From positions 744,001 to 808,000 of the forward strand of contig OZ237735.1 of NCBI GenBank assembly GCA_965178125.1: 64,000 bases of DNA, read 5' to 3'. The translations under genes and the position numbers were made by a program. Origin of the DNA: Bilabrum cf. latius. Its lineage: Eukaryota. Under the pieces are notes generated by a model that worked only from the letters and a program-made list of their open reading frames with translations, was not told the origin of the DNA and did not search any database. Below are positions 104-64,000 of the stretch, piece after piece. Positions within the stretch are counted from its first letter, which is position 1; every line of letters begins with the position of its first letter.

Positions 104-3100
104 ATGGAAGTCATGCGATAGCTTTCAGGGGCAACTGACTTGGACAGATTGCTGCGATTTTGGACTAAACACACCCCCGAAGGCAGCGACGGTCTGCCGC
201 TTGATTTGTTTGTTCAGGCATTTCTGTACGTTTTTGAGAGAAATGGTACATTCCAGCCTAAAGATGTCCACGTCCTACGAAGTACAGATCCTTTGATCAG
301 GTCGTAGTACCCCGATAGGTGGAAATTTGTGCTGCAAGTAATAGCTGCTTTGCTTGAAGCCTTCCGAGACATTGATGTGAACGGAGACAGTCAAATCGAG
401 TGGCATGAGCTGACAGCTTATATTGCTTAGGCTGGAGTTATTGCGCTTAAGAAGACGGCCGGCGTGTACGCGCGAGGGCAATACCAGGAAAGGAATGCAG
501 AGTGGCGTGACACTGGGGTCGACCCGCATGGACGAGGTGTAGGCTCAATATTTGTAGTCGAATGGCCATTTGAGTACGAAGGCCTCCTGTACTCTCCTAC
601 ATCCAGCTACTATCCGCATTCGGGCGGGAAAGGTCCCTGCCGATTCGACGGAACGCCTGCCATTGACCCAACAGGAGCCGTGGACTAGGGCAACCAGTCT
701 GGGGACAGCACACGTCGAGCCATCGCAATGCGCCACTAGCCCATGGAATTATTTGTAGTAGAAAGTGGCAGCACTCGCCTGCGAATCCTAGATGCAGGGT
801 CCAGAGAGGCCGCCTCGGAGCGGGGCAGGGAGCCCATCGAAGGCCTGCGGTAGATGGAGAAACTGACCTCGAGCGCGCAGCCAGCCTCCAGCGGTGCAGG
901 TGGAACGATGCCCGGTACAAAAGGCACTGAATCATTGGATGCGGAAAAGGGGGAAGATGCAGTGCACAGCAGGGCTGGATTTCACGGCAGCTCTGGTGCA
1001 GCGTCTAGTGGTGACCAGGCACAGCTCGACTTTGCCAGCTCGCAGCGACAGGTCAACAGCAAGCGCACCGGCCCGTTTGCCGATGAACGTGGCAGGCGAT
1101 CTATTCGCTACCCCGGAGCCGTGATATCTGCTTGTGCTTCGCTCCGCTTCAAGTACGAGGTCAGGGCAGACAGCCCGGCCATCGAAGTGATTGCACGGCA
1201 GGAGGCCAGCCGGCCGTCCGACGTTGTGGCGCTCCGACGATCAGCCATGGCTGGAGACCCCTCGGGTAGCACTTCCTTTGGCAGCGCCGATCTGCAAATG
1301 GCCATGCTAGGTGTGGGTGGGTCCAGAGGGATCGGCATTTCCCCGAAGGTGTACATGCCCACGTTTGAAGATACCATGCGGATGCTGGCGCCGTCTGCGA
1401 ATCTAGTGGCCTCCGTCACGAGCCACGGAGCCAGGGCCGGCGGTGCAGATGGTGGCACATCCGAGCAAGGGCAGAGAGGCGGTGGGCTGATGACCGAGGC
1501 TCTGGAAGCGGCCGCACATCTGCGCAGGAGAAGGAGGCTGGAACAGCAAGGAAAATAGCTGGGGTTACTCACCGATGCTGGTGGAGACGGCATAGGAAAG
1601 AGCCGGGGTTCCAAGAAAGGCAGTCGGTCAGCCGCTGCTGCATCCAGGAAAAAGTAGCAACTCAAGTCGCTCTTGCGAGCATCGCAGACTCACAAGAGCG
1701 GGACCGGGGCGGGCTCAGGCGGCAACAGGTCCCAGGCCAAGCCTCCTCAAGCGGCCAAGACTTAGTCAGACCAGGCCAGTCCGTCCATCAACAGCGTCTG
1801 TCCGTTGGTTTTCCAGCCAAATTTGAATGCGGCCAGGATGCAGGCTGGTGTGGAGCCTGTCTCAATGGGGCCAATTGCTGCCCCCACCACCACCGCCACC
1901 TCCAAGCAGCAGCGGAAGCGCCTGCAGCAGCAACTGCCAAACATTGAGCGAGGCATCGCACTGGGACAGTCTGATGGCCGAATTACTCTATGGCGGCTCC
2001 CAAAGGGGGCCCACCTTCCCCTGAGTGATTCTGTCTTCGATCCGAAGGGGATCGACGCGGCTCGCAAATCGGCGTAGCAGGCGCAGCTCGCTTCCGAGGT
2101 GGACGACATCTTGAAGCGAGGTCATAGGACGGGTGAGGTGCTCGCCAGAGTGCGAGCACTGCCTGATGTCACTGCGAGCGGGGCCAAGGTTCCTCGGGGT
2201 GGTTCAGCAGAGCAGGACTAGGCCATCGACGACAAAGTCAGGGAGAGGACTGACGCCGCCCTGGCGCAGCTCATGCTCGATGCAGACTCGTCTGTCGACC
2301 CTGACTCGGAGCACAACATCTTGGATGGTGCGTCTGTAGCCAACTCCAAGCCGGTGTACCGGAACCCCTTCGTAGTGTTTGGCGTGATTCCGTTCCGCGG
2401 ACCTGTTGCGCATCTAGCGTCGGCTCTTGGGCTGCTGTACGCGAATGGTCCAGCCGAGCCTGGGTAGGTCTACGTGTACGATATCGCAACCAGAACCCAC
2501 ATTCACAAGATACAGGTGCATCCTGCACCAATCACGCAGATGCTCGCTTTGTCGCCGGGGCAGCTTGGAGTGCCTGGGCCAGTGAGAAACACGAGCTCAA
2601 CCGGAATGGACACGGGCGAGAACGGGGACAAGAAGAAGGGTTTCTTGGACGAGACGAAGACCATGAAGGATCTTCAGCGATCTTTGCGTGAAGTGATGTC
2701 GAAGCAGAGCTCGAGCAACAACGCTGATGTCGGTCCTGCGGCACTGGCCGAGGCCTTTCGGCACGCTGGGTCCATCAAACCGTCATTGGCAAAAACAGAC
2801 CGAGCAATCGCAGTGTCTGATCAAGATGCGGCCGGTCGCGGACTTCTCGTCACCGCAGGCCTGGATCGAACGCTGAGCATCCGCGAGCTGGCCCCATCTC
2901 TGGACGAGACGAGGCAGTTGTAGCGCAACAAGGCGAGGCACCTCGTCAGCAAAGCGAGACAGGCCCGGGCGCTTGAGCAGCAACGCGCTCGGCGGGCAGC
3001 TCGCATGGCACAAATGACACCAAAGAGTAGGGCGACCGCTGGCGATGGTACTGTGGAGGGTTTTGAAGACGACGATGATGGGCCGAGAGAGGCCGAAAGC

Positions 3101-6100
3101 GAGTTCGAGCGGGAGATGCGCCGTCAAGAGGAGGACATTGCTGTGTAGAAGGCTGCACAGTCCATTCCTCTCGTATCCAACGGGGGTCGTGAAATCGCGC
3201 GAGTCACACTACCTCGAGCATGCAGACAGGCCATCTTCGTCCCGCGCGGCAATTTGTTGTGTGTTGCTGGATTTGATACTGAGGCGTGGGCTTTCAGCCT
3301 TCCGTCCGGCAAGCTCGTGCTCTCTTTGCGCGGCCACCACTCTCCTCTTGTTGGCATTTCGGAGATGTGGCACGGGCGGGACTCGTTCGGGCTAGGGGGG
3401 GCCTCCTGGGGTCAGAGCCCGAAGCCCCTCTTCTTTGGAAAGCGATCCCAGGGTGCGGATTCAGGATCAGGGAACGATCCGACTGACATCGCGCTGCCTT
3501 CCTAGGTGGAGCCGAGAGTCGTCACTGTCGACGAAAGCGGCGCCTTCCGCATCTGGGACCTCACTCCAGTAGCCACTGGAGTTGCCCAGTGCATCCTCAC
3601 CTTCAGCGTGCAGACTGCTACGGGTTCGTCCCTTTCGCAGTTTGACCCGCGCGGGCTCGCGGCGGTCCGCCCAACTGGCGAGCTTATTGTTGCCGGATCT
3701 CGCCTGCACCATTTTCTCCCAATGACGTACGCGCGAGAAGATGCAGCGCCTGCACTCTGCCTCTTCAACCCAGTCACGAAGACATTCGTGGTTGCTGGTG
3801 GATCCGGCGAAGTGCAGGGCGCGACCGAGGGCGGCGGGGAGAATGAGGGTGAAGAGGACGTGGAGGAGAATCGCGGTGAGGACGCCGATGATGATGACGG
3901 GCAAGGCAAGGACAGTGCACACGCTGTCGAGGTCGAGGCAGTGGATGGGGGCGAAGGAAACGGCCCCAAGGATGACGATGCGTCAACCAAGACAAAGAAG
4001 GGTGGCAGCTTGCGGGTATTCTCAGCTGCGACTGGTGCCGAGCTGAAACCGCTGCGGTCAATCACTCGGACGCCTATCACTGCAATTGGAGCCGATGATC
4101 GCTTGCGAAAGCTCATTTTGGGGACGCAGGATGGGGGGATAACGGTCGTTAACGCAGCCAACGGTGCGCTCATGAAGCGAGCTGACATTGGTCACCGCAG
4201 GGGCAGCGAGGTGAGTGACTTGGCGTATACGGACCTAGACGGTGATAGAAGCTTCGTGACCGTCGGGTGGGATAAGTCGATGCGAGTGTACGATGAGTCG
4301 CCGCCGCACGCGTGTGTTTGTTTGCGAAGCGTGGTTGGGACGCACAAATCGGACGTGCTTGCAGTGGACTAGTGCAGGCACCCGCTGCGACTGGTAGCTT
4401 CAGGTGATGCGACAGGGCACGTGTACGTTCATGACCACGAGAGCCTCTCCGAAGAGGGTCGCTGTATCGGACACGAGGGCGAAATCACTGGGCTTAAGTT
4501 CATTCGACCGTTCCCACTCCTGCTCAGCACTGACGCCGGCGGTAACTTAGTCTTGTGGGGCGTTCGCGGGAGTGGAGACGGGCAGCAGGATTCCCCGTGC
4601 ATGGTATTCCGCAATCGGAGGGACGACAAAAGGGGCGATCTTGATAGACTCGTCCGAGTGGCTGAACAGCGCCAGCACTACTTGCGTGAGCAGCAGCAGC
4701 AACGCCGTCGCAAGGCGAGGCGCAAGCGCAACAAGGCGGGAGCATCCACAGCCAGATCCGAGGTAGACACTGCCAGAGCGGAAGAACCAGAAGTGTCTGC
4801 GCCAAAGAGTGTTAGCACAGAAAGTCTCATGCTGGGTCCCTCTGTTGCAGTCTGTTCAACCGCAGTGGGCTTCTGGCCCTTCCTAGATGACGGAAACGAT
4901 GGCATTGCGGCTGAAATGTAGACGACCAAAGACATCGTAGATGACCCGATCGAGCGGATGTGGTCAAGATCAGAGCACCCCATGATGACGGAGGAAGCAA
5001 AGTAGTGGGCAAAGGCGGGAATCAAAGCCGATCTTCCATCGGGGGCCGACGGATCCATGCGGAAAGACCCTTTCAAGGTGAAGGAGGACAATGGCGCGAG
5101 CAGTTCTGACTCCGACGAAGACGACGACAGCGCGAGTGGAACTGACGGGAAGCATGCCGCAGACGAACACAATGACAGTGGGTCGAGTGAGATGGCGAAG
5201 TCTGCAGCGGCTCGCTTCTCCCCGATGGCTCACGATCCCAAGAGACCGTGGAAGTCCAGATGCCGCCGTGATGCTCGACGAACCGTCGTCGTCGGTGACG
5301 AGGAAGGCCGCATCAAGGTACTGGACCTCTCGTGGATGCTTAAAGTCGTGGGATGCAGCCCTGTTTCGAGCGCAAACGACGTCATCGGGATCCGTCGCAG
5401 CTCCATGGTTGCGCTCACGGCAGGCAAGGACCTCAAAGAGCTCGTGGCTGCGTAGCTAGCGGCTCAAGGCCTCACACCACCGGAACAGAGCGGCGAGTCT
5501 AGGCCACCAGCGAGCAATGTATTGGACGAGCCTCTCGCTACACCTGGAAGGCCTTCGGCCCAGCGGCTGCCAAGTAGACCCGCTGGCACGGCCTCATCCT
5601 CAGGCCACAAAGGTCAGCTGGCTCACGAACGCCTGGCCGGCCGTCGGCGGCGGTCGCAACAGCTTCAGGAAAGCAGCATGATGGGGTCGATGGATGGCAG
5701 CGATAGCGCTGATCCGAGCGGCTTGGGCGGCAACTCGGGTTTGTTGCGCGGTGGTGGAGGAGACTTCGTGCCTGTGCAGTTTGGCGAGGACGATGAGGAG
5801 GACCTGATGGATGGGGCCGACGGAGAGTACATGACGGCGGGAGCCCGAGCCGCGCTGAGCGAAGGCGTGCGCCAGAATCGAGCTGGTAAGGGGGAGCTTG
5901 TCATGACAGGTCGCAAGACGCGAGCAAGGCAACGAGAGCGCCTCGCTGCTGGAGATGGCAGTGGCAGGGGTGGTACGAGCGCAAGCAGTCGAGAGCACGC
6001 TGCGAAGCGGAGTGCCGCTGCCCGTGCTGAGCAGGAAAAGATGGAGCGCATGCGTCACTTCATCCTTGCAGCTGACCGTACCCGCAGCGTGCCAGTGCTG

Positions 6101-9100
6101 GCTCAGTGGATGGCCCATCCTGGCTCCAGCGTAGTTCAGGTGCAGTGTATTGCGGATCCACCGGCGATTTGCAGCTGCTCTGCGGATGGATCGGTCAAGC
6201 TCTGGCGCCCAGATGGACTTCCCCTTGGGGCACTTCTGTATTCCCCACTCGAAGCGTACCAGATCAGGATTGGCACTATGCCTGCTACCCCTTGGCGATT
6301 TCAGCTAGACAAAGAGGTTGAGAGAAAGCGCAGGGAGGCCGAGGCTCGGCGGTTGCTGCGGGTCATGCGCCGGCGAGCTAGAGCCAGGTACGAGACCGCC
6401 AAGCGAGAGGCCGCCCGTGCCTCTGCCATGCATAAGGCGTCCACAGTGCTGGCAAAGAGAGTTCCGCAGAGTCCTCTGCTGGATGTTGCAAAGCGGTCGT
6501 CTGGTGTCGATCCTGGCAAGGTGGTGCAGGTAGAGGGTGACAGTCTAGTCAATGATTCAGCGGGTAAGCAGCTGCATGGGGAAGCAGGAGGTCCTCAAGA
6601 CAAGGGCCGCCCGAGCACAGCTGGCTCTGCAGATGAGCTAGCCAGATGGGAAGGTATCGCCAAAGAGGACTCTTTAAAGATCCAGGAAGAGAAGCTGGCC
6701 GTTCAGATGGAGCAGGAGCATGAACGAAAGGTGCAGAAGCAGCTGGAAGAAGATCGCGAGAAAGATGCTCGAATGGAGCAGCTCAAGATATCTGCTGGGC
6801 TCTCCAGGGCAGGTAGCACCCGCTCCATTGGCTTGGGTGGCTCTTCACCAGGAGGAGATGAGACTGCGAAGATGGAGGCGAGACTGACGCATTTCGAAGG
6901 CAGTTTCCGAGGCTTCGCCAAGGCGAGAGAAAAAGCCAAGAGCTTGATTCAAATTGACGAATCAAAGGCTATCCCAGATGGTGACGCACAAACCGTAAGC
7001 GCAGGCACGCTCTCTGTGGAGCCTGCACGCAAACAAGTCTCGTCAACAACCTCGATGCAGTCGGCGGGCAGCCGGAAGTACGAAACGCTCGGAGTCGCAT
7101 TGAAGCGGATGGGAAGCTCAAGGAAGAGCTTTCATCTGGGGAACAGGAATAAGAAGCACATTGCGGTGCAAAAAGCTCTTGGTGAGCTGGGTAGGCGTGG
7201 CAGTGATAGTGATGACGACGCCGACGGTGGGAGCGACTCGGACGAGTCGATGCAAGCAACGATGTTCTCACCCGACCACAAGGATGTCGTGGCAATATTT
7301 GCATCCAAATAGGCTGCCAAGGATTAGAGCGGTGCAGATGATGCCATCAAGCAGGAGAAGGAGCAGCAGGATCGCGCGGAGCAGGACCGCAAGGCCGCCT
7401 CAGGTGTATTTGACGAGCTGGTCGGCGGCAAGCGCGGCTCCCTGGACGAGGAAGCCAAGCAAGCCGCCGAAGCAATCAAGGCACTGGGCTCGGAGCGAGC
7501 AGCTGGAACCATGCTAATGACTCATCTCATGAGTGGCAATGCACCCGTCATCCACGAGCGGTACTACCCCCACCTCATGGACTCGATCTCAAAGCTGCCC
7601 AGCGGCGGTGCCGGACAGGGGGCGCCGTCGCAGAGATCATCAGAAGCCACTGCTTCAGCAACTCTGACCGCTGCAGAGGGTTTTGGTGGCCTACCAGTTC
7701 TCCCTGGTCGCCCTGGCATTCCTGGCATGCCGCTGCCAGCCGGGTTTCATGCCGGTGGCATCGAGATCGGAGGCAAGGCAGCAAGCAGCTCGGCCGATGA
7801 ATCGCTGGCCAGAGCTGCGCCCATGTCATCGTTTCTCAAGCTTCGTTTAGGCGAGATTAAGGGCACCAATACTCGCAGCAAGAAGAAAAAGAAGAAGAAG
7901 AGATCAGGTGCTGGCTCTCAAGACGGTGGCAGTCTAGCCTAGACTGCCCCAGCAGCGGTGCGCCAGCCTGGAGGAATGGGCAAGTCCAGGTCTCTGTTCG
8001 TCGGGAAAGAAGGCTCCCTGTCGCGCACGGGTACTCTTGGCCTTGGAATGCATGGGGTCACGCAGGTGAGCGAGGCAGGCGGCAGCTACTCTACAACTGA
8101 TGGGATTGATGACGTCCACGCCGTGCAAGGCATTCGAGGCAGCCATGCTTCACCACTGGGGCGTCGCGGCTTCAGGGGGGCCGACTCCGTACCTGCTCTC
8201 AAGAAGAACAACACCCTGGCGAGGTCGATGAAACGGAAAGGCACCATGAGTGCAGAGTAGCTGCCCGACCCCGGCCCACGGTCGGACTATGCTGTAGACA
8301 GGCAGGATGACAGATGGGCGCAGGAGATGTGGATCTTCAGCAAGTCTTCATACACGCTGGCAGCTAGTGCCATTCGACGATCGAAACGAGTAGAGTCCAG
8401 CAGAAAGCGCGTTCTGCTGCGATGGCTGGTGCAGGCGAGCGTGTCGGCAGGCGGCCGAGTTGACTCGCTGAAGGGCCTAGAGTCAGACCTGCTCACGCCT
8501 GTGAGGGACTTCCGCCGGAGCACGAATCGTCCGGACACTATGGATGCTATTCATGAGAGGCAGGATGCCGCAAAGGCAGGCTTCAAGCAGCTCAAGACCG
8601 GCTCCCTTACCCTGATCAGCTCGGGGGAGGCGGTCGCGCTGGAGACTGCAATTCGGCACGCCGCTGCTGAAGATCTTCGGTGCAGGCTAACCAGCCAGGC
8701 CAACTTTGCCTTGCATTTAAGAGGAAAACCTCCATCCTCGCGGACCAAAGGGCGATCTAGTCCCAAGCAGGGTTTGCCGAAGCCTGGCAGGCTTCCCTCC
8801 CTTGGCTCTGCCGGCCGAGGCGGTGTCTTGATCGGGGCATCACCATCTAGGAAACGATTAGATCCGTCGGGTGGCAAGCAAGCAACAGTCAGATTTGCCG
8901 GTATGGATGACAAGGCGCGTGATGCCGGGCACCCGAGTGACATGCACGATGGCAGCCACGATGCTGGCGATGAGGGCCTTAACGCAGAGGGCAAGCATTC
9001 GAGCGGCAGGTACAGAAGCCCCGAGGAGAGGATGGCAGTGTTGGAGCATGCAAGCAGAGCTGCTCGTAAGGCGCACGAGGCGATGACCAAGTCCGCGGAT

Positions 9101-9943
9101 CCGCTGCGGAAGCTCAAGGCAACGGCGTCCACGCCTGACGTCAAGGAGCCCGTCGCTAGGCGCGGCGAGCTGCCCGACAGGCACACCGGTCTGACAGACA
9201 GAGAGGTGCTTAAGGCTGCTAGAGTGGGTGGTATCCCTGTCGGAGAGCTTCAAGAAGCCTATTTGCTCTTCTCTAGACTGGACAAAGACGGCTCTGGGAC
9301 CATCGACCCGCAAGAGCTGCTGGACTCCAAGGTGTGGCTGGCCCCCAGCCAGGCCCGGGTGATTGACGAGGCTCGCGACGAGGCGGCGAGACACAGGGCA
9401 CTGGAGCATCGTATCGCGTTGGAAGACGAGCAGGCCGAGGAGGGGGAAGAGCCCAGTAGCTCTATCGGAATTAAGGATGTCTACGGCGACGCGGGGGAGC
9501 CCCCGACGGATGCATCCAGGCCGGGCATGCTCACGGCATCGTCCAGACTGGCCGAGCTCCTCTCTGCGCATGCATCGAGCATCTTCCGCTCCATGGATAC
9601 GAATGCCGACGGAGAAATCAGCCTCAAGGAGTATTTGACTGCGCTGTTCAAGTCCAAGGCGGCCCCTACGGCGGGCCCGAAGCACTCTGTGCTGGCATTC
9701 ACTGCCAAAGCCAAGGAGCGGCCAGTCGGTGGCTAGGCTAGCCCTTCTAGCCCCGCTGGGCGAGCTTCCACGAGCGGCAGGGGCTCAGCCAGCGAGAGGA
9801 AATCCAAGAAGCGACATCCGATCAGCCGCTGGGGGGGACAGCAGTCGTCGCAGCAGCGAGGCATCCGAGAGATGCTGCAGTGGGTGCGGGCGAGGCAAGC
9901 ACAGGCCTCGAAAGCAGCAAGATCTGGCATCTGGAACCAGTGA
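104..9943 (+). CDS. Large EF-hand + WD40 repeat protein (WDR49/WDR64/EFCAB8-like architecture), ~3279 aa with TAG=Gln
   Basis: One frame runs from ATG 104 to TGA 9941-9943, interrupted only by ~24 TAGs, and joins track ORFs 464, 854, 1805, 2273, 2474, 3254, 3506, 4421, 5057, 5522, 7511, 7958 and 8327. It has an N-terminal EF-hand (DIDVNGDSQIEWHEL), WD40 motifs (LRGHHSPLVG, TVDESGAFRIWD, TVGWDKSMRVYD, SCSADGSVKLW) and C-terminal EF-hands (DKDGSGTIDPQE, DTNADGEISLKE). An additional upstream exon cannot be excluded. Confidence 0.8.
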
Positions 9944-10098: not shown

Positions 10099-10944
10099 TC
10101 ATGCCACGATGTGGTCGTTCGTCCAGGCCCTGCTCAAGTCCGCCAGATGGTCGTCAAAGTCCGCGAATCGGAACCGGCTAGCCTCGCTGCCGCCGGGCCC
10201 GACCGCCCCGACGCCCATAGCATCAGCGAGAAGCCGGCTACCGGCTCCTTCCTCCACGACTAGCTTGTCCTTGGGAAAGTCCCTCGGAGCTGCTCCTGCC
10301 TTGTCAACCACCGACAGTTGGAAGGCGGCTGATGTGCTGTCTGGCAGCTACTCACCGCTGGCCCCCGTTGGTGCTATACCTGAATCAATGACGCGCGCCA
10401 ATATAATCGGCTGTACCTATGAATCCTTGGGTACCATCGCCAATCCAGTACGCTTCGCGATTTTTGTGCTTTCTTCCTCTTCATCCTACACGTCTTTGGG
10501 TTCTTCGCTGGCTGCCAATCGAACACCAAGTGCCAGGGCAATTCGCTCAGCAGCATCGCGCATTGGTAGAGCTACGGAGTCAGCATAATAAACACCAACT
10601 ATGGTCTAGCCTTTACCGGTAGCCCACGCGTCAACCTGTGGTGCAGTAGGGGGGAGTTGAACGTACTTGGTGGAGGCAAAACTGAGGTGAATACGGAGCG
10701 CTTCACGGACCCATCTCACTGCAGATAAGGCTACCTCTGATATTGGTGATGAAACTGCTGTGTGAAATAGCGGGGCGCAATCGATCACCGAGGCAGCACC
10801 GCCATCAATGTTGCCAACTAGCAACCCGAGGACGCTGCCTGACGCGTGGTGCAAAGAGTGCACTATCGCCTTAGCCCATGCTACCTTAGAGAATGAACAG
10901 CTCGTTAATCTTGTTGCTCTTGCCCCTGGACCTGATCTTGCCAT
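10099..10944 (-). CDS. EMC8: ER membrane protein complex subunit 8/9 (MPN-like), ~253 aa; intron 10636-10719
   Basis: Motifs AWAKAIVHSLHH...VLGLLVG...VIDCAPLFH, IVGVYYA and C-terminal FADFDDHLADLSRAWTN match the EMC8/9 family. It has 4 in-frame TAGs, an 84 bp GTGAGA...CACAG intron and a TGA stop. Confidence 0.85.
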
Positions 10945-51905: not shown

Positions 51906-54900
51906 ATGAGTGGTGTGCGAGACTCACTAGATCATGCAGATTAGCTACTCAAGGATATCCGTTCAGTAAATAGAATGGTAGGTCGTCATGAACGGCTTTC
52001 AACCCTCGCTGGATCGAAACTCTCTGCGTCACTCAAAGTCGACACGCTGCAGTCAAGGATCCCGATGGCACCGTGAGATATGCACGTAGATGATTCCCCC
52101 TGAATAGAAATTATTGGCAACATTGCGTGGAAACACAATTCTATTTGGCCTAACCGCAGTGTGCTTGCCCGTCGGGACACTCGAAGCCAGCTGCACAGCA
52201 GAACCAGTATCGAGAGCCGCAGCGGAAATGCTTTAGGCCTGTACGCAGGCGCAGGTGCTCACCATAGTCATCATCTTGAAAGTGGCTATGCTCGTGCATC
52301 CAGGGCTCTTGGTTCACGGGAAGTGGGTCGCCTCGGTCGGCCAGGGATTCAGTCGTCCTCCGCATCAGATCTGGTTGCCGCTGCATTAGAGGAGGTTTCA
52401 CATGCCGTCAGCCACGACAGTGGCATCGACAGAACAAGTGGACGTCGACTAGAATGGAAGTTCGGCGCATGTCTGTACTCAAAGAGCGGGCGGCAGTTCA
52501 GAGGACGCACGTTGCGGTTCGGAGCATCTCGGCTGGACCCTCCCGCTGACGTTGCTGCGGTACAGAATGCCCTCATGCATGCTGCTGAAGAGTAGGAGAC
52601 AGAATTTGCGGCCCTGTATTTGGCAAGTAACTGCCCTGATCGATTCTTGGCTCCAAGCGGCGCTGCCCGGGATTTGCTCGTGCCAGTGGGCCCGCTGGAT
52701 GTGTACTGCGTGCGGCCCGACGGCGCGATGATGAAAAAGCCCTTGTTTGATCTCCTGCCGATGAGGCAGGTAGTGGACTCGCGGGAGCACGGTCGGAACC
52801 GCAGCGCGCGCGGCGCAGGCAAGCACGAGCACGATGACAGCGGTCGTGCTGGGTCCTACCAGGCCTCCGGTCAATCAGCTGCACGTGCTGGCAGCATTGG
52901 GATGGAAGAGTCGGGGCTCATTCGTCGGGATGTCATTCCAAGCACCACAGCAGATGATCTTCGCCGAGAGAGGCAGGTGAGGCGGTGGAGAGTCGCGGAC
53001 GTGTGCGAGTACGTGAGCGAGGTGCTCGAGCTGCCAGGGCTCGCGAGCAAGTTCAGAGCCGCATCGGTGGATGGAAGATCGCTGCTATCGCTCGTTCCAC
53101 GTGAGCACTCACACTCTGGCACGTCTTCGTCTGCTGTGCCATCGGGCTTAAGCTCAAGAAGCAACCTAGATGGCGATGGCACGGACCTCGAGACCTTGCT
53201 TGGGATCGAGAATCGGCTGCACCGCAGGAAGCTTGTGCAGGCAATCCAACGGCTTCAAACCGCGGATCTGATTGAAACTGGGCTGCAGGACGGTCGAGAG
53301 GACGACTTTCTTCTCATGGCAGATGCTCGCAGGCTGAGGCTGCTTGAAAGGTGCCGGGTCTTGCACGCAGAGCTTACCGCTGGGAAGAGCGTGGAGAGCG
53401 TGAAGGAGGAGCTGGCAGGCGTCGCAAATCTCATTGGTGCCGAGGTGCGCGTTGTACAGATGGCTGCCAGGGTGTGGGTTGACGAGCAAGGGAAAGGCAG
53501 TGGTGGAGATGCTACAGGGCGGCTGGGCAAAAGCACCAGCAGTTTTGTCGATTTCCTGCTGGCGCATGTGGACTAGCAGCGCGGCAGTGCAAGCTAGGAT
53601 CGATAGCTTCCGAGTATAAGCGAGCAATTTGGAGGTCGGACTCGTCGAGCGGGTGGCACGGCCGACTCTGCCAGGCGGGGCTTGGCATACCAAGTCAGCG
53701 GGTAGGGGTACGGCGGGAGGGCGCCTCGGCCGGATGGGACCATTCCACGAACCTCTGTCCGGGGGACGCGCTTCTCCCAAGCTAGCACGAAGACAGCAAT
53801 CGCGGAGCGACCCCCAATCGAAGCTGCTCGGGATGCTATTTAGAGGGACCCGTCAGAGTCCAAGGCGGCAGAGTCAGCGGTGGGCACCGATGGCGGCAGC
53901 TCAGGTGTCCACGCGAAGCGCACACATTCCAGGCAGGGATCAGACCCGGCATACGCTTCCATCTAGCAGCGCTCAGGGATTGCCGGGCCTGGATCTGGAT
54001 CCGGACAGAAGTTCAACCTGCCATCCATGCTGCCAAGCGGACCCCTTGCTGGCACTCTGGGGCGCTGGATGGAGACCGCTACGACTGGTGCACTCGTGAC
54101 CCATCCCGGTTGCGACGACTTCGTGGACCAAGTTAGAGAGAACAGATTGCTCGGGGATAGAATCGAATTGGTTGAGGAGGAGATGAGAGCTCGCGCGCGT
54201 GCTCGAGCATTTAGGCGTGGCAAGCAAAGCAACCGAGCGAGGCGAGACGGGGCAGAGGCGGCTGCAGCTGAAGCAGAAGCACACGTCAGCGCAGTGGCTG
54301 CATTCGCAAGCCAGACGTGCTCTGTGGATGACGTGGCTGTCGCTGGCCTGTGTTCACACGCGTGCCGAGTGGGTGCGATGCCACATTTTGCTAAGCTCAA
54401 CCAGTCTGCAAAGAGCCGCACCATTGCCTTGCCAAGGGCGCGATCGCTGGAAGCAGCCATGACGGCCGTGTCAAAGGTGCAAGAAGAAGACTTGTTGTCT
54501 TGCGATGCAGAGCCAGAGCCTCATAGCCGCGCTGGCCGGCTGTTGCAGCTGCGTGTCGATGCCTGCTAGCAGCGTATCGAGGCGACGCATGCCAATCTCT
54601 GCGAGCTGATTCAAGGAGCTGTCTCTGCCGAAACTCTTGGTAGACTGGAATAGGACCAACTACTTCGATTGTTTCAAGTGTTTCGGGCCGCGTGCGAGAG
54701 GTCTGTCGCTGCCAGTAGCGACGCTGCAGTGTCTGGCACAGACGGTGACGACTCGGAGGATGCTGCCACCACTGGTCGAGAGCAACTTCTGAACCTAGTC
54801 GGCAGAATTTGCAAGCAAGCATCTCTCAAGTCAGGCACAGAAATCCTTCCCTCCAAACCTGACGGGGCCAGGGGCAGGGTTGGCCGATCTCGGAGCGCTC

Positions 54901-57900
54901 GCGGCAACCGCGAGAAGGGCAAGTCTGCGCTTCTGCAAGCCTTCAAGAAAGTAGACAGGGATCGATCAGGGAAACTAAACAGGACAGAAGTGAACAATGC
55001 CATCGAGTCTCTTGGCTACAAGCTAAAACCGTGGGAGGCCAGCCTTCTGTTGGACAGCTTGGACGCATCTGGTGATGGCCTGGTCAGCTACGCTGAGTTC
55101 GCCGATGCCCTAGTCGCCCTTGCAGCCGAGGCAAGCATCGCCGCAGCTGAAAAAGCTGCCCAGATGGCAGAATCAGTCGGTGGCGCGGGATCCACTGATT
55201 TTTCTTCGCCAGAGGATGCTGCGAACCAGCTCCTACTCACGGTCGTCGGTCGAGCGGCACGGCAGGCCCGCGAAGACCAGCAGGATGGGTCTAGCATCAA
55301 GGAGAAGTCGGCCATCCTGCGCGTCTTTAAGGAAATCGACGAAGATGGAAGCGGCAAGGTGGGGCCCAAGGAGCTCGCTCGTGCCCTGCGGCGCCTGACT
55401 GGGTACACCGTAACGCGGTGGGAGGCAGAGTCGATAGTAGATGCGATGGATGCTGACGGGGATGGCCATGTCTCGTACTCCGAGTTCGCAAATAAGCTGC
55501 TTGAAGCAGGTGCTAAAGCAGCTGATGATGTTGAGCGAATGGAAAAACAGCAGGCAGCCTTGGACAAGTTAGGAGGTTCTGCGGGGGTAGTTGCTGTGCT
55601 TGGCAACGCAAGAGAGGCGACACCTGGCGGGGCGAGCGGATCGAAGGGCCGGCTGCTGGCCGACAAAACGGCTGTTCAGTGGGGCTTGGCGTAGCTAGGA
55701 TACTCGTTCCAAGCCACAGAAGACTCGACACCATCGAGAAGCTTGACTGCCATGGCCAGCGAAGTGCAGCCCCTTGCTGCGGCAGTTGACTCCCTGTTCG
55801 TCGAAAGGGCAGTGACCGGTGATCCTGGTGAGGATACGACAGATGCTGGCAGCGAAGCATCTGCCAAGATCGGATTCGCGGATTTTTGCGACCTCGTTGC
55901 AAGCTACTGCACCTATGGAAGCCCAGCTCACCAGGCTGCGTGCCGCGAGACGTTGCAGGCAAGTAGCCCAAGCGGGCTGATTGGCGATGTGGGCCGCACG
56001 CTGGGAACGTCGTTTAGGGCTTCAAACGGTTTTCCCGCCGAGGCTTCCTTCTTGCAGCCGAGGCCTTAGGATTTGATCTTGTCTCAGTAGATGGCAGAGC
56101 TTGAGAGCCGATTCGATCAGCTGGCTGCCGCACGCGAAACGCAACTTTTCGCGCCAGGACCGGACAGCTCAATGTAGCTTCAGAACATCGAGTAGGAAAT
56201 GCTCTTCCTATAGAACCAAGCTACCACACTGCAGGCGCAGGTTGGTGCGGGAAGTACGTTTGGACAGGCAACGGACCCACGGGCAAGGATGGGTCGATGG
56301 TCGTAGCAGCAGACCCTCATGCCCCAACTCCCAAGGCGCTCTGCGGACATGCGTGAGGTACCAGTTTGTATTCGCATGCTTGACGGGTGTGGGGAGATGC
56401 CTGGCTGTGACAGATGGTACGCCGGTGGGTGTACAGGCCTAGCACAACTGCATGCCCAGGCTTTCGTCCTAGCAAGGATGCTTCTGCTGGAATGTGCAGT
56501 GCGTGCCAGTGGGAACATCGAAGCGAGTGAAGCTGTGCCATGGCGAGGTGAATCAAACACCCTTGTGACTGCGGTTCTGTCCGAACCTCAGGAGCCTATG
56601 CAGGCAGCTGTGCCTGCGTCTGTGACCCCGGATGCCATCAAGTTGCTGGATGCTCATGCGGCGACGTTGAGATCAGTTCAGGCTGCAGGAGGCGCCGCCC
56701 CCGCCCCTGTGGATGTAGAGGCAACAGAATGGTGGGCTGGCCTCGATCTGGCTCTCGCAGGTGGGCCTGCCCTCCTTGCTCTGTGTTCGCTGCTCGCGTG
56801 GTGCGAGACCACAGCGAGCTTCGCCAAACGAGCAAGCTCTGGATTGCTTGCAGCAGCCGGTGACGACATCGATATGGAGCTGCAGGCGATCAACCTGGAG
56901 TCTGCAAGCACATACGTCGGTATCGCAGCCAGTTTGCTTGGGGTGGCTGCCGGCCTCTCCCCTGCACCGATTCGCGGCTCGTCCTCCTCTGCTCGCGGTG
57001 GTCGCCCTTTTACTCACCAAGTATCATGGCCCGTGTCAGAGAATCTGGCAGAACAGCTGGTTGGAGCACAAGGGGGGAGGCCCCGCAGTCTGGCAGGACG
57101 ATTTAGACGCTTTGGGTTCGGTACGCCCTAGTCGGCATTCTAGCAGCCCCAACAACACCTCTTCGACCAAGGGCAAAGCGCTCTTGCTATGGCGGATTTT
57201 TTGGCAGCTCCAAAGCCAGACGACCCAGATCGCCTTCTTAGACTTCGGTCCGGAGAGCCGCTGTTCTCGGTGGGCGACTGGGTAGAGGCACGCACGAGTA
57301 AGCGAGGTTCTTTCGAGCCGGCCAGAATCTCTGAGGTGTACCCAGCAGAACCAGATACTGGCGAGAAATGGGCATCTGTGCACCGGTATGACGTGATATT
57401 CGACAACGGCGATGCGGTTCGACATATTCCAGAAAAAGCAGTCTTGCCAAGGGGGCATCGGCAGCGCCTGCGTGCTGCCCAGCTTGCGGCTGGCACCCGC
57501 ATGGACCGCTTTGACGATATGTACGGCCCGATGTACGATGGGGACCACAGGCGCCGACGCGGCCGGTACCATCGTCACAGCAGACGCCATGACCACCGCA
57601 GGCACCATGGACGAAGCTCGCCTGAGTCTTCTGCCTATTCCGGTCGCAGCAGGGAATCTAGCCGCAGCTCAGGCTCGAGAAGTCATGGTTCCCGCGGGCG
57701 TAGAAGCTCCCCCAGCTACAGTCGAGATCATCGCAGTAGGCATTCCTTGCAGAAAATAAGCAGTGGCGACCGAGTTGAATTCCGGCCGCCTCACCACAGC
57801 CGCTGGATGAGTGGCCGGGTTGCGAGGGTACACCACGGCTCGTTTGGCGGAGCATAGTTCGACATTGACGCTCGGGATGGTAGATCGTACGACCGAGTTC

Positions 57901-59897
57901 CAGAGGAAAGGGTCCGAAATGATCGAGACGACGATAGTCGCAGCCGTAGCCGTCACGCGCGGCGCAGACGGGGCAGCCGCGACAGTCGCAGCAGCCGCCG
58001 CAGTGGTGACCGCTCACCGAGGTCTCGCAATGGCAGCGACAGTGATCGAGACAGAGACAAACGCCGACATACCTACCACAGGCGGTCTGACCGACATCGC
58101 CAGTCACCCCGAAGCAGATTCCGCAAAGGTGATCAAGTGGAAGTCAGGCTGCCTGAGAACCTGCGTGACAGAGGTGCGTGGAGACCTGGCAAGCTGATTG
58201 ATATTCGGTCTAGGGTAGAGTCCGCGGCCCAATCCCCACGATTCGAAGTGGAGCTGGAGCGCTCAGCAGAGCGCCGCAGTGGTGGACGCGTCCGCTCTGT
58301 TGTAGTACGTCGAGAGGAGGACTTGCGATCCTCAACTGAATCCAAGGATGCTGACAAGCTGGAGTCTGTGCTAGGCCTGGGCCTCGGTCCGTCAGGACCA
58401 AGTCGGGAAGGCAAAGGCAAATAGCCTGCCAGTGCGCGAAGTAGGGGTTCAGGGGCAGGCTCCGACAACGGAAGGCCTTCGTCGAGTCAAAGCGGATCCA
58501 AGTCGAAGAAGGGGGGAGGGGATTTAGAGTCGTTGCTACTCGGAGGGAAATCAGACCGCAAAAAGGACAAGCCCACTGCCAAGAAGTCGGACAAGGAGGA
58601 CAAGCCCGACAAGGAGGACAAGCCCGCTGCCAAGAAGTCGGAAAAGGAGGACAAGCCCGACTAGGAGGACAAGCCCGCTGCCAAGAAGTCGGAAAAGGAG
58701 GACAAGCCCGACAAGGAGGACAAGCCCGCTGCCAAGAAGTCGGACAAGGAGAACAAGCCCGACAAGGAGGACAAGCCCGCTGCCAAGAAGTCGGACAAGG
58801 AGGACAAGCCCGACAAGGAGGACAAGCCCGCTGCCAAGAAGTCGGACAAGGAGAACAAGCCCGACAAGGAGGACAAGCCCGCTGCCAAGAAGTCGGACAA
58901 GGAGGACAAGCCCGACAAGGAGGACAAGCCCGCTGCCAAGAAGTCGGACAAGGAGGACAAGCCCGACAAGGAGGACAAGCCCGCTGCCAAGAAGTCGGAC
59001 AAGGAGAACAAGCCCGACAAGGAGGACAAGCCCGCTGCCAAGAAGTCGGACAAGGAGAACAAGCCCGACAAGGAGGACAAGCCCGCTGTCAAGAAGTCGG
59101 ACAAGGACGATGGATCTGACGGTTACGATGACGCCAGTTTTGATTCTGACGGCAGCATCGAGATCGATCTGCCCGATAACTCGAAGACACATGGCAAAGC
59201 ACCACAGCGAGGGGGTAGCAGCTCAAAGAAGAAGCCCGCGAAATCTCCAGCTAATCGCAAGACTTCTGCTGAGGGCTCGTCGAAAGCACAGCCCAAAAAG
59301 TCGCACTTGTCCAGCTTGTCGGACCTCCCGTCTTTGGGGCCAACCAAGCCGAAAGCGCCCGGCGAGCCCGCCGCCAAGAAACCGCAGCGCCCTTCTTCTG
59401 CAAGACGAAGGCCATCGCCTTTGTCCACGGCTTCATCAGGATCAGGATCGGGATCCGCAACTGCCAAGATAGCTGCCAGCAAGTCCTCAACGAGCGGCCC
59501 CACGCCCCCAGGAAAAGGCAAGCTTGAGGCGGTCGCTGAATCAGCCGCCTCAGAGGCCCCTTCCAGCGACTCTGAACCCGAGACGGATGAGTCGGTGGCT
59601 TCGGACGACACTCTCGACGACGACCTCGACCTGCAGGTCGGCCAGAAGGTGCGGTTCGCAGCAGGATACAAGGGGGCCCCGAAACCTAGAGCGAGCGGGA
59701 GCATCTGCGGCAGTCGGAAGAAGGCAGGGAAGGCGGGCGGCGTCCTCTACGACGTCAACGTGGTGGACGGCTCAAAGATGGAGGTAGTGCGCGGTGTGCC
59801 CCGCCACGAGCTGACCATGGTCGGGCCTAGGCTCAAAGCTGGTAAAAAGGCCAGCGCGAGCCTAGATTCGACGGACTCAGAGGCGTCCACTGACTGA
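51906..59897 (+). CDS. Large multidomain protein: SAM + four EF-hands + four Tudor/Agenet-like repeats + Lys/Asp/Glu tandem repeat, ~2634 aa; intron 52073-52159
   Basis: SAM domain (WRVADVCEYV...VDGRSLLSL...LGIENRLHRRKL). EF-hands DRDRSGKLNRTE, DASGDGLVSYAE, DEDGSGKVGPKE and DADGDGHVSYSE. Tudor-like starts FSVGDWVEAR, SSGDRVEFR, FRKGDQVEVR and LQVGQKVRF. One frame with ~20 TAGs, ending TGA-TGA. Confidence 0.75.
58563..59106 (+). repeat. Coding tandem repeat, 51 bp unit (DKEDKPAAKKSDKEDKP), about 10-11 copies
   Basis: Near-identical copies of gacaaggaggacaagcccgctgccaagaagtcggacaaggag(g/a)acaagccc are visible directly. Confidence 0.95.
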
Positions 59898-60030
59898 TGA
59901 AAAGGTGTTGTGGTTGGTGCAACTTGAATGCTTGCCGCACTCTTGCAATGGTGGGTCATATCCAATCGCACATCTCCCAACGGTCACAGCACAGCTGCCT
60001 GTTCATGCCAATTACCATACTTTGAGGAAC

Positions 60031-61017
60031 TCATTCCCGACCCTGTACAGGAGCAATGCCAATCCACGGCTCGGGCGGCCTCCCATCCCTCCAAGCTTGC
60101 TCGAAGGCAGCCTGCGCCGCCGCTGCCGCTCTCTCCCTGGCCTCCCGCCTGCTTCCCTCCACCATGGGCAGCTCGGCCTCGAGCTCTCGCAGCTGCTTTT
60201 CGCCAGATGCGATCGTGAGTTCAAGCTTGTTGAGCTTGTCCCATCCCATCAACTTGTCGGAACCACTCGCCGTGGCCCCGCCTGCAAGGTCTAGCCTCCG
60301 CCTGAGCTATGTGGCTTCCTCTCGAAGCTCCGCCAGAACAGCCCTAAGCTCATCGGCCGCTTTGCGAGATGGACGCATGACTTCCAGTGGGGAACTGATT
60401 CCAGCTAGACCGGTGGCGGCCAAGTCCTCGGCATCTCCTTTCGCCTTCACGTCAACAACTTCCCGGAACGAAACCGTACCGTCCAGCTACGCGGCTCTGT
60501 GCACCACCGAATACACACTCTCTCTACATTCTGCCTGCAAGACCACATTAGTCCCATTGGCGAATTTAACTTCGATTTCTTGACTTGATTCTGGCCTGTC
60601 CACCTTTGAGAATTCCGGCTCTACCTCACTGCCCCTGATATCTATGAACTATTCGACCAGCTTGACAACTGCAGGTGCATTCTCATCAGCCCATTCTCTC
60701 GATTCGTGGTCAAAACGTAGTTCATAAATAATTGTGGACGGGATTCCTACAAAGAGCGTAGCAAGCATCAATATACCAGCGTAGTAGTAGTCCGACTTGC
60801 CTTCGTCCTTAGGTTGCTTTGGCTATTCGCCGTCACCAGACCCGCTTTCGCTACCACCAGTACTAGCTTTGGGATCAGCTTGTGCTGGTGGTGCTAAATC
60901 ATCCCCACTTGCCTTTGATTTTTGGCTGGCCGAAACCTCAACAGCGAACCGGACTGCGCAACCGTGCAAATGATCAATTCTTGTTCTCCGGACCCCCAAA
61001 CCAACAGCCCTTATCAT
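60031..61017 (-). CDS. Hypothetical single-pass, probably mitochondrial protein, ~328 aa
   Basis: One frame from ATG 61017 to TGA 60031 with 4 TAGs. It has an Arg-rich presequence-like start (MIRAVGLGVRRTRI), a hydrophobic segment (YYYAGILMLATLFVGIPSTIIY) and a C-terminal coiled coil. Confidence 0.65.
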
Positions 61018-61253
61018 CACACGGGTACCATAAGAAGAAATTTGGCGCAAACGAGTCACTCCGTGCATTGATCGCATCGGTGTGAGCGATAATTGCTTTC
61101 GTGATGGTGGTTGCGTGTGTTTTGGGGCAATTCTGTTTTTCGAGGTTGCGCATTTGATCATATCTGCTGCAGCTTACCCAGCAGTTGCCGAGTAGATACC
61201 CGTGTGAAAGCAATAGTTCCTTTATTAAGTTAGTTTGGTGCTACCTTGAGAAA

Positions 61254-61496
61254 ATGGTTCTTCAAGGCCAGGACGCTTGGCGAAAGCACCCCTCGTTGGT
61301 CCGAGGCGTACGCGCTGCATGGTTTCGAGGACCTGAGACACTAGCCGTGATCCTTGGATTTACCGCTGTATCTTATGCTGGTAAGGCAATGGGATTGTGG
61401 GGTGATAGCCATGGACATGGACACGGGCATGGGCATGGTGGCCATGGAGCTGCACACGGTAGTTATGGCTCTAGCAGTGCAGGCGAAACCCATTGA
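61254..61496 (+). CDS. NDUFB3: NADH:ubiquinone oxidoreductase subunit B12-like, 80 aa
   Basis: The QDAWRKHP motif is followed by one TM helix and a His/Gly-rich tail, as in plant and fungal B12 subunits. TGA stop, no TAG. Confidence 0.7.
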   Translation: MVLQGQDAWRKHPSLVRGVRAAWFRGPETLAVILGFTAVSYAGKAMGLWGDSHGHGHGHGHGGHGAAHGSYGSSSAGETH

Positions 61497-61602
61497 TTTG
61501 TGCAGGATAATCAAGTTCTTCTGTTTCAATACATTTAAATTCCTTGTTTACGTCTTGCAATTGTCTTGTGTATGCATATTTAATGCCTTTCCCGGAAGGC
61601 AG

Positions 61603-61637
61603 ACATGTACCGCTAGAAATACATGTACCGCTAGAAA
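61603..61637. repeat. Short direct duplication (acatgtaccgctagaaa x2) downstream of NDUFB3
   Basis: Two adjacent 17 bp identical copies at 61603 and 61621. Confidence 0.8.
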
Positions 61638-62206
61638 AAAAACTTGCGAAATGCTGCCTTAGACTGCCAGCCACCTTGGTGGTTTTGTGGGTCGACATTC
61701 GAGAGCCACAATTGTATGGTAACTGCTTACTAGCTCTGCGTGGCTGCTTAGCTCGGCACAGCTCCTGCGAGTACCACCCCACCCCCCCCCCCACCCCGCG
61801 TATCTGCTGGTCCTGTTCTGTGCTCTGCAGCATGCCTTGCGGCCGACCCTTGCCTGGTGCTTTATCTTCGTCCTCTCCACATCCTGAAAAGCAAGGTTTC
61901 GGTTCTCGCGAGGGGTACTCCCGTCGCCCAAGCAACTCAGCACCGAGAGCGGCCCGTCCTGGCGTGCATCTGCCAAGTGGAAATTCAGCTGCTGCTGCTC
62001 CTATACCCCCATTGCGATCCGCCTTGCTGGTAGTAGGAACTGCATGACCGAAATAGCGTTGCTCAACCAGTCAATGCAGGGGGCTGTGCTTCGTCTGGCC
62101 AATCCGATTTTGTCAAACAAAAAACTACACGTTACTAAATGAATCGTGTCCGGGCAAGACTGCGGTTTTTAGCCATTGGCGCTCGTAGCGTGTCGGTAAT
62201 CTTGAA

Positions 62207-64000
62207 ATGGCGTCTGCCATCGCTGCATTTTTCGGCGGGGGAAAGAAGGGGGTCGGGTCTGACTCCAAGTACTTCTCTGCCAAGCGCAGTGAGTGCACTA
62301 ATCCAGAACCTTGAACGTGCGTCGGAACGCGACCACAGCACATTCCTGTTCTATTGCTGGTCTCAATCTGAATCGCAGGCGATCGAGAAATCGAAGAGCT
62401 CTCTAAGGAATTGATCTCTCCTAAGATCGATGAGATGAAGGAGGCGATCAAGAAGGTTATTGCGAATATCACTGTCGGCAAGGACATGTCGCCGTTGCTG
62501 CCCCAGCTTGTGAACTGCTTGCGCACCGGTGAGATTTATTTCTGCAAAGCTACACTGTATGGCCCGTGCATGCTCTCATGAACCTGTCTGAAGTCACGTC
62601 CTGCCTGACCGGATCGCAGACAATCTTGAGGCGAAAAAGCTGGTCTACCTGTACCTGATCAACTACGCAAAGACGAATCCGGAAATGACAATGATGGCAG
62701 CAAACGCGTTCGTGAAGGACACGCGCAACCCGAATCCGATGCTTCGAGCTCTCGCTTTGCGAACTATGGGAGCCATTCGCGTCGACAAGATCACGGAACA
62801 GCTGTGCACCCCACTTAAGCACGCGCTAACGAAAGAGACAGTGAGTCTAATTTCTAACTGCTGCGTGCCTTGTTGCCGGAATACTCGCGCGAAGCCATGC
62901 TCTGTACCACCTCAAAATCTGGCTACTGGGTTGCCGCCGTTTCGCCGCAGGACCCGTACGTCCGCAAGACCGCGGCCATCTGCGTGGCGAAGCTCTTTGA
63001 TACCAACCCCGAGCTCGCGCATGACCAAGGTTTCATCATCGACCTGAACAACCTCATCTCGGACCCCAACCCGACCGTGGTGGCCAACGCCGTGGCTGCC
63101 CTGGCCGAGATCCAGGAAGGCTCCAAGGACGACGTGTTCGTGATCAACACTGCCGCGCTCACCAAGCTTACCACCGCTCTGAACGAATGCAACGAGTGGG
63201 GATAGGTCTTCATCCTGGATGCCCTGGCTAGGTACGAGCCGGCCAGCGAGCGCGAGGCCGAATCGATCATCGACAGAGTGCTCCCTCGGCTCAAGCACGC
63301 CAACGCCGCCGTTGTCCTCTCCGCTGTCAAGATCGTCCTGCTCATGCTGGACCGGATCACGTCCCCGGACACGGTGACGGGCTACCTTAAGAAACTCTCC
63401 CCTCCCCTGGTGACACTTGCCCAGGCTCCCCAGCACGAGATCCAGTACGTGGCTCTGCGGAACATCTCGCTCGTGGTGCAGAAGCGGCCAGGCCTCCTCG
63501 CCAGCAAGGTCAATGTGTTCTTCTGCAAGTACAACGACCCCATCTACGTGAAGCTCGAGAAGCTCGAGCTGCTCGTGCGGCTGGTCACCGACAAGACGAT
63601 CGACGCGGTGCTCCGCGAGCTCAGGCAGTATGCCCAGGAGGTCGACGTCGAGTACGTCCGCAGGGCCGTCCGAACCGTGGGTCGGTGCGCCATTAAGCTA
63701 GAGAAGCAGGCGGAGAAGTGCATCATGGTGATGCTGCAGCTGCTAAAGACGAAGGTATCCTACGTCGTGCAGGAAGCCGTGGTTGTCACAAAGGACATAT
63801 TCCGAAGGTATCCCAACCGGTACGAGAGCGTGATTGCAGTGATGTGCAAGGCACTCGACAATCTGGACGAGCCTGAGGCCAAGGCCTCCCTGGTGTGGAT
63901 CGTGGGTGAGTACGCGGACCGCGTGGTGAACGCCGCGCAGCTGCTGGAGCTCTTCCTGAAGGGTTTCAAGGACGAGACCGCGCAGGTGCAGCTGGCCCTG
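62207..64000 (+). CDS. AP-1/AP-2 complex beta-adaptin, 3' truncated by the window; introns 62289-62378, 62529-62619, 62841-62950
   Basis: [59 protein letters not shown][TAG][23 protein letters not shown] and YVVQEAVVV. Three GTGAG...CGCAG introns are phase-consistent. Confidence 0.95.

Follow-up and report, generated by a model that had tools for sequence, protein, structure and literature searches.

The question raised by a 64,000-nucleotide (nt) stretch of contig OZ237735.1 (assembly GCA_965178125.1, listed under Bilabrum cf. latius; hereafter the window, with position 1 as its first letter) is why its long genes are interrupted time and again by TAG and by no other stop codon. Reassignment of UAG without UAA was long considered blocked, and only a handful of nuclear lineages are known to have it. 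An earlier reading of this DNA, made from the letters alone (hereafter the sequence-only reading), had proposed that UAG is a sense codon here, most likely for glutamine (Gln, Q). Our analysis arrives at the same answer: in the nuclear genome behind the window, UAG is read as Gln and UAA is not sense, a reading to which we assign a probability of about 0.92 and which matches the 'UAG-only to Gln' type of code, NCBI translation table 15. Under this code UAG would be decoded as Gln throughout the nuclear genes, with UGA terminating each complete gene seen.

The window has a G+C content of 59%, and its longest open reading frame (ORF) by the standard code measures 883 amino acids (aa). With stops limited to TAA and TGA, the two strands contain frames of 3285, 3218, 2743, 2597, 2460 and 1356 aa. 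The longest frame bounded by TAA or TGA averages 386 aa over 20 mononucleotide shuffles and reaches 529 aa at most. No window frame becomes longer when TAA is taken as sense, and when TGA is taken as sense (as W) the gain in length is confined to off-frame ORFs, as expected because the DNA is rich in G+C. In total, 14 gene frames comprising 19,765 codons were delineated, with a G+C content at third codon positions (GC3) of 0.64; every one of them contains TAG, which amounts to 138 codons or 0.7% of the in-frame total, although the frames were cut from stop to stop and a few of the 138 may precede true start codons. TAA and TGA are both absent in frame. Over the spans of 12 of the 14 genes, the other two frames hold, per 19,222 codons, 62 and 63 TAA, 196 and 141 TAG, and 295 and 489 TGA. 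Three additional ORFs yielded no Pfam match and were left out of the gene count.

Pfam matches run across TAG codons in the kinesin motor (over 18549-18551), the three EML/WD40 blocks, the ferlin C2 domains, CFAP61_N, the acyl-CoA oxidase, the Rad51/RecA-like ATPase, UPF0172/EMC8 and the beta-adaptin, and the frames are interrupted by TAG alone, never by TAA, TGA or a frameshift. NCBI table 15 gives the correct reading of the window genes. The sequence-only reading had counted more than 100 in-frame TAGs and no TAA or TGA, and had seen the kinesin motor, EMC8, WD40 and C2 domains continue across them; all of this stands, as do its example sites at 18549 and 56067-56318, which were found where it had placed them. 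Its tally of 14 out of 15 genes holds for the 14 frames with TAG, and the fifteenth gene, without TAG, was not found. Local recoding of the selenocysteine or pyrrolysine type was also considered and is ruled out by the 138 sites, which share no common context. As for codes of the Condylostoma, Blastocrithidia or Amoebophrya type, in which all three stop codons serve as sense codons, in-frame TGA and TAA both stand at zero, which sets the window apart from them. The delineated genes are listed below, each with its strand and its number of in-frame TAGs.

86-9943, + strand: g1, a 3285-aa WD40/EF-hand protein; 24 TAGs, ends with TGA
10099-10995, - strand: UPF0172/EMC8-like gene; 4 TAGs, ends with TGA
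11239-13449, + strand: Rad51/RecA-like ATPase gene; 7 TAGs, one lying 6 codons before the terminal TGA
13530-16019, - strand: acyl-CoA oxidase gene; 2 TAGs, ends with TGA
16092-20162, - strand: kinesin gene; 8 TAGs from stop to stop, one of them (18549-18551) within the motor domain, ends with TGA
19849-28080, + strand: CFAP61-like flagellar protein gene; 16 TAGs, ends with TGA
28181-37837, - strand: EML-like protein of 3218 aa with three HELP/WD40 blocks; 19 TAGs, ends with TGA
38636-39343, - strand: small gene, no family assigned; 6 TAGs, ends with TGA
39312-40814, + strand: WD40 protein gene (the putative DPH7 of the sequence-only reading), with Pfam matches of WD40 type only; 4 TAGs, ends with TGA
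40978-43317, - strand: g8, no family assigned; 10 TAGs, including two that precede the terminal TGA by 8 and 2 codons
44317-51699, - strand: ferlin (multi-C2) gene, 2460 aa; 12 TAGs, ends with TGA
52104-59897, + strand: g10, an EF-hand protein with a Lys/Asp/Glu-rich tandem repeat; 21 TAGs, ends with TGA TGA
60031-61173, - strand: g11, no family assigned; 4 TAGs, ends with TGA
62189-64000, + strand: beta-adaptin (AP-1/2 beta) gene, truncated by the window end; identified by Pfam and PDB matches

The meaning of UAG can be read from close relatives, whose proteins are stored in public collections only as TAG-cut fragments (P0020, P0021, P0063, P0245-P0250). Fragments 89-94% identical to the EML-like protein stop directly before window TAG sites 2466, 2646 and 2903. 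For g1, a search for short relatives with residues 1-1700 gave 6 matches, to which cluster look-ups added more, and the fragments with 93-98% identity display Q at all ten of the window TAG sites that they span, as follows.

g1 residues encoded by TAG (+ strand) with Q in near relatives: 201, 218, 256, 491, 524, 664, 712, 794, 946, 1021
Codon starts of those ten TAGs (+ strand): 686, 737, 851, 1556, 1655, 2075, 2219, 2465, 2921, 3146

Exact ends of the same fragments coincide with 4 further TAG sites of the window and, in one case, with a CAG. Since fragments end exactly at TAG sites, the gene caller that produced them used TAG as a stop, and therefore the Q residues of the relatives correspond to ordinary Gln codons. 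Between g1 residues 201 and 1021 (686-3148), at this protein identity of 93-98%, the ten sites with TAG in the window and Q in the relative stand against at least one site with CAG in the window and a stop in the relative; about 450 aa lie between the relative's g1 fragments and are not covered by them. This excess of TAG in g1 may come from continuing drift of CAG to TAG, or else the relative may have lost TAGs.

An independent line of evidence is a metagenome contig, designated L001. No relative was found when metagenomes were scanned with the ferlin, and a scan with protein fragment P0253 led to this contig of 7,408 nt and 55.6% G+C, in which a frame of 2,469 codons is open only with TAG as sense (20 TAG, 0 TAA and 0 TGA). 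The standard code leaves it with no ORF above 438 aa, the longest being terminated by TAG, and the database protein fragment of L001 ends at the contig's own TAG. The codon alignment of L001 with g1 covers 2,426 aligned positions at 65.5% identity (75% in the part of g1 residues 1-1700). Window TAGs face CAG or CAA in L001 at 6 of 10 well-aligned sites, and L001 TAGs face CAG or CAA in the window at 6 of 14.

g1 residues encoded by TAG and facing CAG/CAA in L001: 946, 1021, 1140, 1429, 1612, 1790

Pooling both directions, the partner is Q at 12 of 24 TAG sites, the rest being A (3), S (2), E (2), and M, V, H, K and D (1 each). For comparison, real Gln is conserved at 64% in this alignment, and none of the other residues has Q as its partner more than 5.3% of the time. 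The empirical matrix yields an ln likelihood of -47.4 for Q and -75.7 for E, the runner-up, a gap of 28 ln units, with all others at -90 or worse; K, N and S fall 43-47 units behind Q (Ser by 47), and Leu is absent from the eight best-fitting residues. Two of the ten g1 sites listed above are CAG or CAA in L001, the more distant sequence, so TAG is derived there. TAG usage in the window's lineage appears to be still expanding through CAG-to-TAG changes. Furthermore, since the near relative (known from protein fragments) and L001 share the trait, the code is a property of a small clade and not of one strain.

Whether the TAGs persist in messenger RNA (mRNA) was assessed through public sequencing runs. 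For the ferlin stretch, 17 runs from 11 studies are listed; at least three quarters of the sampled words of this stretch are present in each of X1-X7, seven runs that belong to 3 of these studies. Contigs of four runs were placed on positions 44001-64000, which include 38 in-frame TAG sites. Run X1 is DNA-like, with an even depth of about 15-20, no splice joints and an unspliced adaptin gene. In runs X5 and X6, which come from two studies other than that of X1, depth differs up to hundredfold between genes, and their contigs have three GT..AG introns removed from the adaptin gene, so that the joined exons form a continuous open beta-adaptin frame.

62189-62288, 62379-62527, 62619-62840, 62951-64000, + strand: beta-adaptin exons, from spliced contigs
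62289-62378, 62528-62618, 62841-62950, + strand: beta-adaptin GT..AG introns of 90, 91 and 110 nt

Of the 38 TAG sites, 19 are covered by the listed pieces of X5, all 12 ferlin TAGs among them, and 15 by those of X6, with no other letter at any covered site in either run; deviating letters at TAG sites are reported in none of the four runs, DNA run X1 included. In particular, the RNA-type contigs 44302-47208 and 47193-51796 carry all 12 ferlin TAGs without any other letter, and in g11 all 4 TAGs are spanned by RNA-type contigs and are unchanged. The sequence-only reading had named CAG or another codon in mRNA at these sites as the test of its claim; TAG is retained in the RNA-type contigs. That X5 and X6 are RNA is concluded from their spliced contigs and uneven depth; no run is recorded as RNA, the automatic guess for both is 'RNA?', and X5 is also marked 'probably DNA'. 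Since spliced RNA-type contigs keep TAG, UAG-to-CAG editing and assembly error are excluded at the covered sites.

Termination in the window relies on TGA, which ends 13 of the 13 genes that are complete at their 3' end, with no terminal TAA and no terminal TAG. This bears on an explanation in which UAG has a dual meaning, being sense within genes and stop near mRNA 3' ends, as in Condylostoma- or Blastocrithidia-like systems. It would account for the TAGs found close to the end of two genes, namely g8 (40978-41004; 8 and 2 codons before TGA) and the Rad51-like gene (13429-13449; 6 codons before TGA), and such systems need short 3' untranslated regions (3' UTRs), of which there is a hint in the ferlin RNA-type contigs of two runs, which stop 15-20 nt past the TGA (44297-44319), contig ends being weak evidence for 3' UTR length. 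Against it, TAG is required as terminator in none of the 13 frames, each of which has TGA; at a TAG share of 0.7%, one or two genes with TAG in their last 8 codons are about what chance provides, and the late-TAG count is near that expectation. Moreover, the late TAGs of both genes could equally be former terminators that are now read through. We consider a dual meaning very unlikely, and Gln at every UAG remains our reading of these genes.

A second alternative is that UAA and UAG both encode Gln, as in the ciliate/Hexamita code (table 6), with TAA rare through G+C richness. The use of UGA as sole terminator in all 13 genes is what table-6 organisms show, and a GC3 of 0.64 goes in the same direction. 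Conversely, CAA is common among the Gln codons (210 CAA and 478 CAG in the window; 45 and 54 in L001), and if TAA:TAG is assumed to follow CAA:CAG, about 61 in-frame TAAs are expected in the 19,765 window codons and about 17 in the 2,469 codons of L001, whereas none is seen in either. TAA does occur off frame, at the counts given above, and 7 of 11 frames are bounded on their upstream side by an in-frame TAA. Because none is seen against about 61 and 17 expected, and because of these off-frame and boundary TAAs, TAA is not sense, in agreement with the earlier claim that UAA had not been reassigned along with UAG. We accordingly hold joint reassignment to be highly improbable, and the UAG-only code is retained.

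Equally improbable, in our estimation, is that UAG stands for another polar residue (Ser, Thr, Glu or Lys) or is decoded ambiguously. TCG, GAG and AAG are one step from TAG, and S and T fit the columns of distant homologues about as well as Q does, as detailed below. In addition, g10 carries between residues 2167 and 2327 (58600-59100) tandem 17-aa units rich in Lys, Asp, Glu and Pro, with core codons identical in ten copies, except that an AAG (Lys) present in nine of them is TAG in the tenth. However, this is a single A-to-T change in one of ten units and could equally be a K-to-Q substitution, and near relatives have Q at each of the ten sites seen, while the L001 comparison separates Q from E, K, N and S by the margins given above. 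Individual well-conserved sites in the alignments also point to Q. The beta-adaptin of the window has one such site. At ferlin residue 1213 (TAG 48061-48063), 51 of 87 homologues have Q, as do three of the four closest homologues at ferlin residue 2017 (TAG 45649-45651) and 56 of 131 at EML residue 2702 (TAG 29732-29734).

63203-63205, + strand: TAG codon within beta-adaptin, at the place where AP-1 beta-1 chains have the Gln of their EWGQ motif; read as Q by table 15

The ten near-relative sites, the L001 likelihood and this EWGQ site together uphold Gln as the residue that the sequence-only reading had favoured.

The columns of distant homologues were obtained as follows. With the EML-like protein, a word-index protein search among sequences of near length scored 2,547 candidates and returned none at E<=1e-10, and an exhaustive HMMER search returned 1,034 at that threshold. 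The EML column set was built from 150 sequences of the exhaustive HMMER search with the last 1200 aa as query, and the ferlin set from 94 sequences of the word-index search with the C-terminal region as query; the homologue columns under each query codon were then scored per residue. As a control, the method recovered the standard meaning for 61 of the 61 sense codons with at least 5 columns. An unmasked goodness-of-fit test, in which TAG resembled no residue (z -3 to -4 even for Q), was dropped as biased: residues actually present in the query influence how the alignment forms, an effect that X lacks. In the fair control, each residue type was masked before alignment, and the fraction of real-residue sets scoring at or below the observed value was 0.16-0.17 for Q, 0.08-0.15 for T and 0.08-0.10 for S, with K, R and N at 0.01 or less. 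This control rejects A, E and all hydrophobic, aromatic, acidic, Gly, Pro and Cys residues, Leu among them with a z of -6.7 to -7.2.

Several observations weigh against UAG as Gln with UAA not sense. The 20 usable TAG columns of the EML and ferlin sets give no clear residue: pseudocounts yield T 3.5, R 1.0 and Q -1.2, BLOSUM smoothing places T, S, K, Q and N within one unit of each other, and the top scores (T at 3.2-3.7, then S, K and Q) are all close, so that on these alignments distant columns limit TAG to a small polar residue and cannot decide between Q, S and T. The EML relative with 55-58% identity has P, A, A, E, Q, Q and V at 7 window TAG sites, weaker evidence that is still compatible with Gln. 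The CAR (CAA or CAG) codons behind the Q residues of the 93-98% relative are deduced from protein. TAA as terminator is likewise never observed, its stop role being an assumption, and 13 genes are too few to show that TAA is never used. Finally, a tRNA scan of the 64-kb window found no tRNA gene, and eRF1 is not among the window's genes.

The weakest alternative, that there is no change of code and that the TAGs arise from assembly or sequencing errors, pseudogene decay or mRNA editing to CAG, can be set aside as barely conceivable, as we found no evidence in support of it and it is contradicted by the recurrence of the ferlin stretch in seven runs of three studies, by the absence of other letters at covered TAGs in DNA run X1 and RNA-type runs X5 and X6, by interruptions that are TAG only, and by the same pattern in the independent contig L001.

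Regarding mechanism, UAG as Gln would involve a tRNA-Gln with anticodon CUA, derived from tRNA-Gln(CUG) and reading UAG and not UAA; such a tRNA is expected because only a CUA anticodon reads UAG without UAA. A glutaminyl-tRNA synthetase that accepts the CUA anticodon would also be expected, as well as an eRF1 whose recognition of UAG has been lost or weakened and which would still recognise UGA and perhaps UAA. The same logic for UAG-only decoding, with tRNA(CUA) one mutation away from tRNA-Gln(CUG) together with a change in eRF1, is laid out in the portion of Panek et al. (2017, PMC5304391) that deals with the code. The present genes show that UAG is decoded with sufficient efficiency to maintain and express genes carrying as many as 24 UAGs.

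The organism behind the window was placed through two of its proteins. Named matches of the ferlin are almost all stramenopiles, including oomycetes, Cafeteria, Triparma, Ectocarpus and pelagophytes. In a ferlin tree of 83 rows and 501 columns (LG+G4, quick search, 11 peronosporalean rows omitted), with support given only by the Shimodaira-Hasegawa-like approximate likelihood ratio test (SH-aLRT), the window sequence falls in a 12-row clade with a support of 98, whose sole named member is Cafeteria roenbergensis, and the adjoining clade consists of oomycetes and ochrophytes. Among the best 10 EML matches, 6 have organism names and five of these six are stramenopiles, the sixth being Diphylleia; Cantina marsupialis is the second-best match. 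An Rfam scan of the window gave no match and no rRNA. We therefore place the organism, on protein similarity, probably among the stramenopiles near Cafeteria and Cantina, a placement made of two single-gene signals in which paralogy is possible; by the same signals it is probably not a fornicate, a rhizarian or a ciliate, and the clade with UAG as Gln appears to be one of heterotrophic-stramenopile affinity. An anaerobic metamonad like Iotanema is further disfavoured because acyl-CoA oxidase and flagellar genes are present. The stramenopile grouping of ferlin and EML agrees with the earlier statement that the organism does not resemble the known UAG-only lineages.

The UAG-only to Gln type of code is already known from several lineages. 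In the fornicate Iotanema spirale, UAG encodes Gln, UAA and UGA are stops with UAA as the primary one, and a T32G change in eRF1 is reported, according to the code-related part of Panek et al. (2017, PMC5304391). The window shares with that account the assignment of UAG alone to Gln, decoupled from UAA, and a predicted tRNA-Gln(CUA) with altered eRF1. By contrast, Iotanema is described there as an anaerobic metamonad with UAA as main stop, whereas the window organism has stramenopile affinity, an acyl-CoA oxidase and flagellar genes, and the terminators seen are UGA in 13 of 13 genes. Among ciliates, the relevant sections of McGowan et al. (2024, PMC11687900) attribute UAG-only Gln to Protocruzia tuzeti and two phyllopharyngean lineages, whose codon table, as given there, is identical to that of the window (NCBI table 15). 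Unlike those ciliates, the window displays an ordinary chromosomal gene order, with 14 genes per 64 kb on both strands, and stramenopile-like proteins; its spliceosomal GT..AG introns are also noted.

The more widespread reassignment of both UAR codons (UAA and UAG) to Gln, table 6, is listed in the same sections for many ciliates, Hexamita, Streblomastix, some ulvophytes and Amoeboaphelidium (PMC11687900). As summarized there, these codes resemble the present one in that glutamine captures a stop codon and UGA is the working terminator, and they differ from it in the in-frame UAA, which is absent here against about 61 expected. Reassignments of UAG alone to other residues are recorded, in the relevant parts of the two papers, for the rhizarian exLh (Leu), Scotinosphaera (Ser) and a phyllopharyngean metagenome-assembled genome (MAG; Leu) (PMC5304391, PMC11687900). 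On that description they share with the window the decoupling of UAG from UAA, and they differ in the residue, Leu being rejected here and Ser fitting 47 ln units worse than Gln.

In full-text literature, which leaves most subscription journals and supplements out of scope, we found no nuclear code variant described for a stramenopile. The sequence-only reading had suggested an independent and possibly undescribed origin. Independence is the natural reading, because the ferlin and EML proteins group with stramenopiles; undescribed status is not something that can be proven, and we put the odds that the case is undescribed so far at roughly even. Slightly less probable than that, in our judgement and within the literature covered, is the full proposition that this is the first stramenopile nuclear stop-codon reassignment, an independent UAG-only Gln origin in a small heterotrophic-flagellate clade near the bicosoecid/placidozoan part of the tree, represented by at least three sampled lineages.

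Each independent origin of such a code tests how eRF1 and a tRNA with a CUA anticodon can separate UAG from UAA. For this purpose the lineage offers an assembly of genome scale, public runs with RNA data, and relatives whose proteins are about 95% and about 65% identical. With these it would be possible to reconstruct in which order the tRNA was gained, eRF1 changed, TAG terminators disappeared and TAG spread into genes. There is also a practical consequence: gene callers set to the standard code shred the genes of this organism, so annotation and phylogenomics need table 15, and without retranslation by that table the lineage is under-represented in homology searches and phylogenomic data sets.

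A few further features of the window were recorded. It is gene-dense, with 14 genes and about 59 kb of stop-to-stop frames per 64 kb on two strands, and several coding frames continue without interruption for 7-10 kb. Proven introns are confined to the adaptin gene, where there are three of 90-110 nt, all GT..AG. The contigs of the DNA run are interrupted within the g10 tandem repeat, and the same gene ends in a tandem TGA TGA at 59895-59900.

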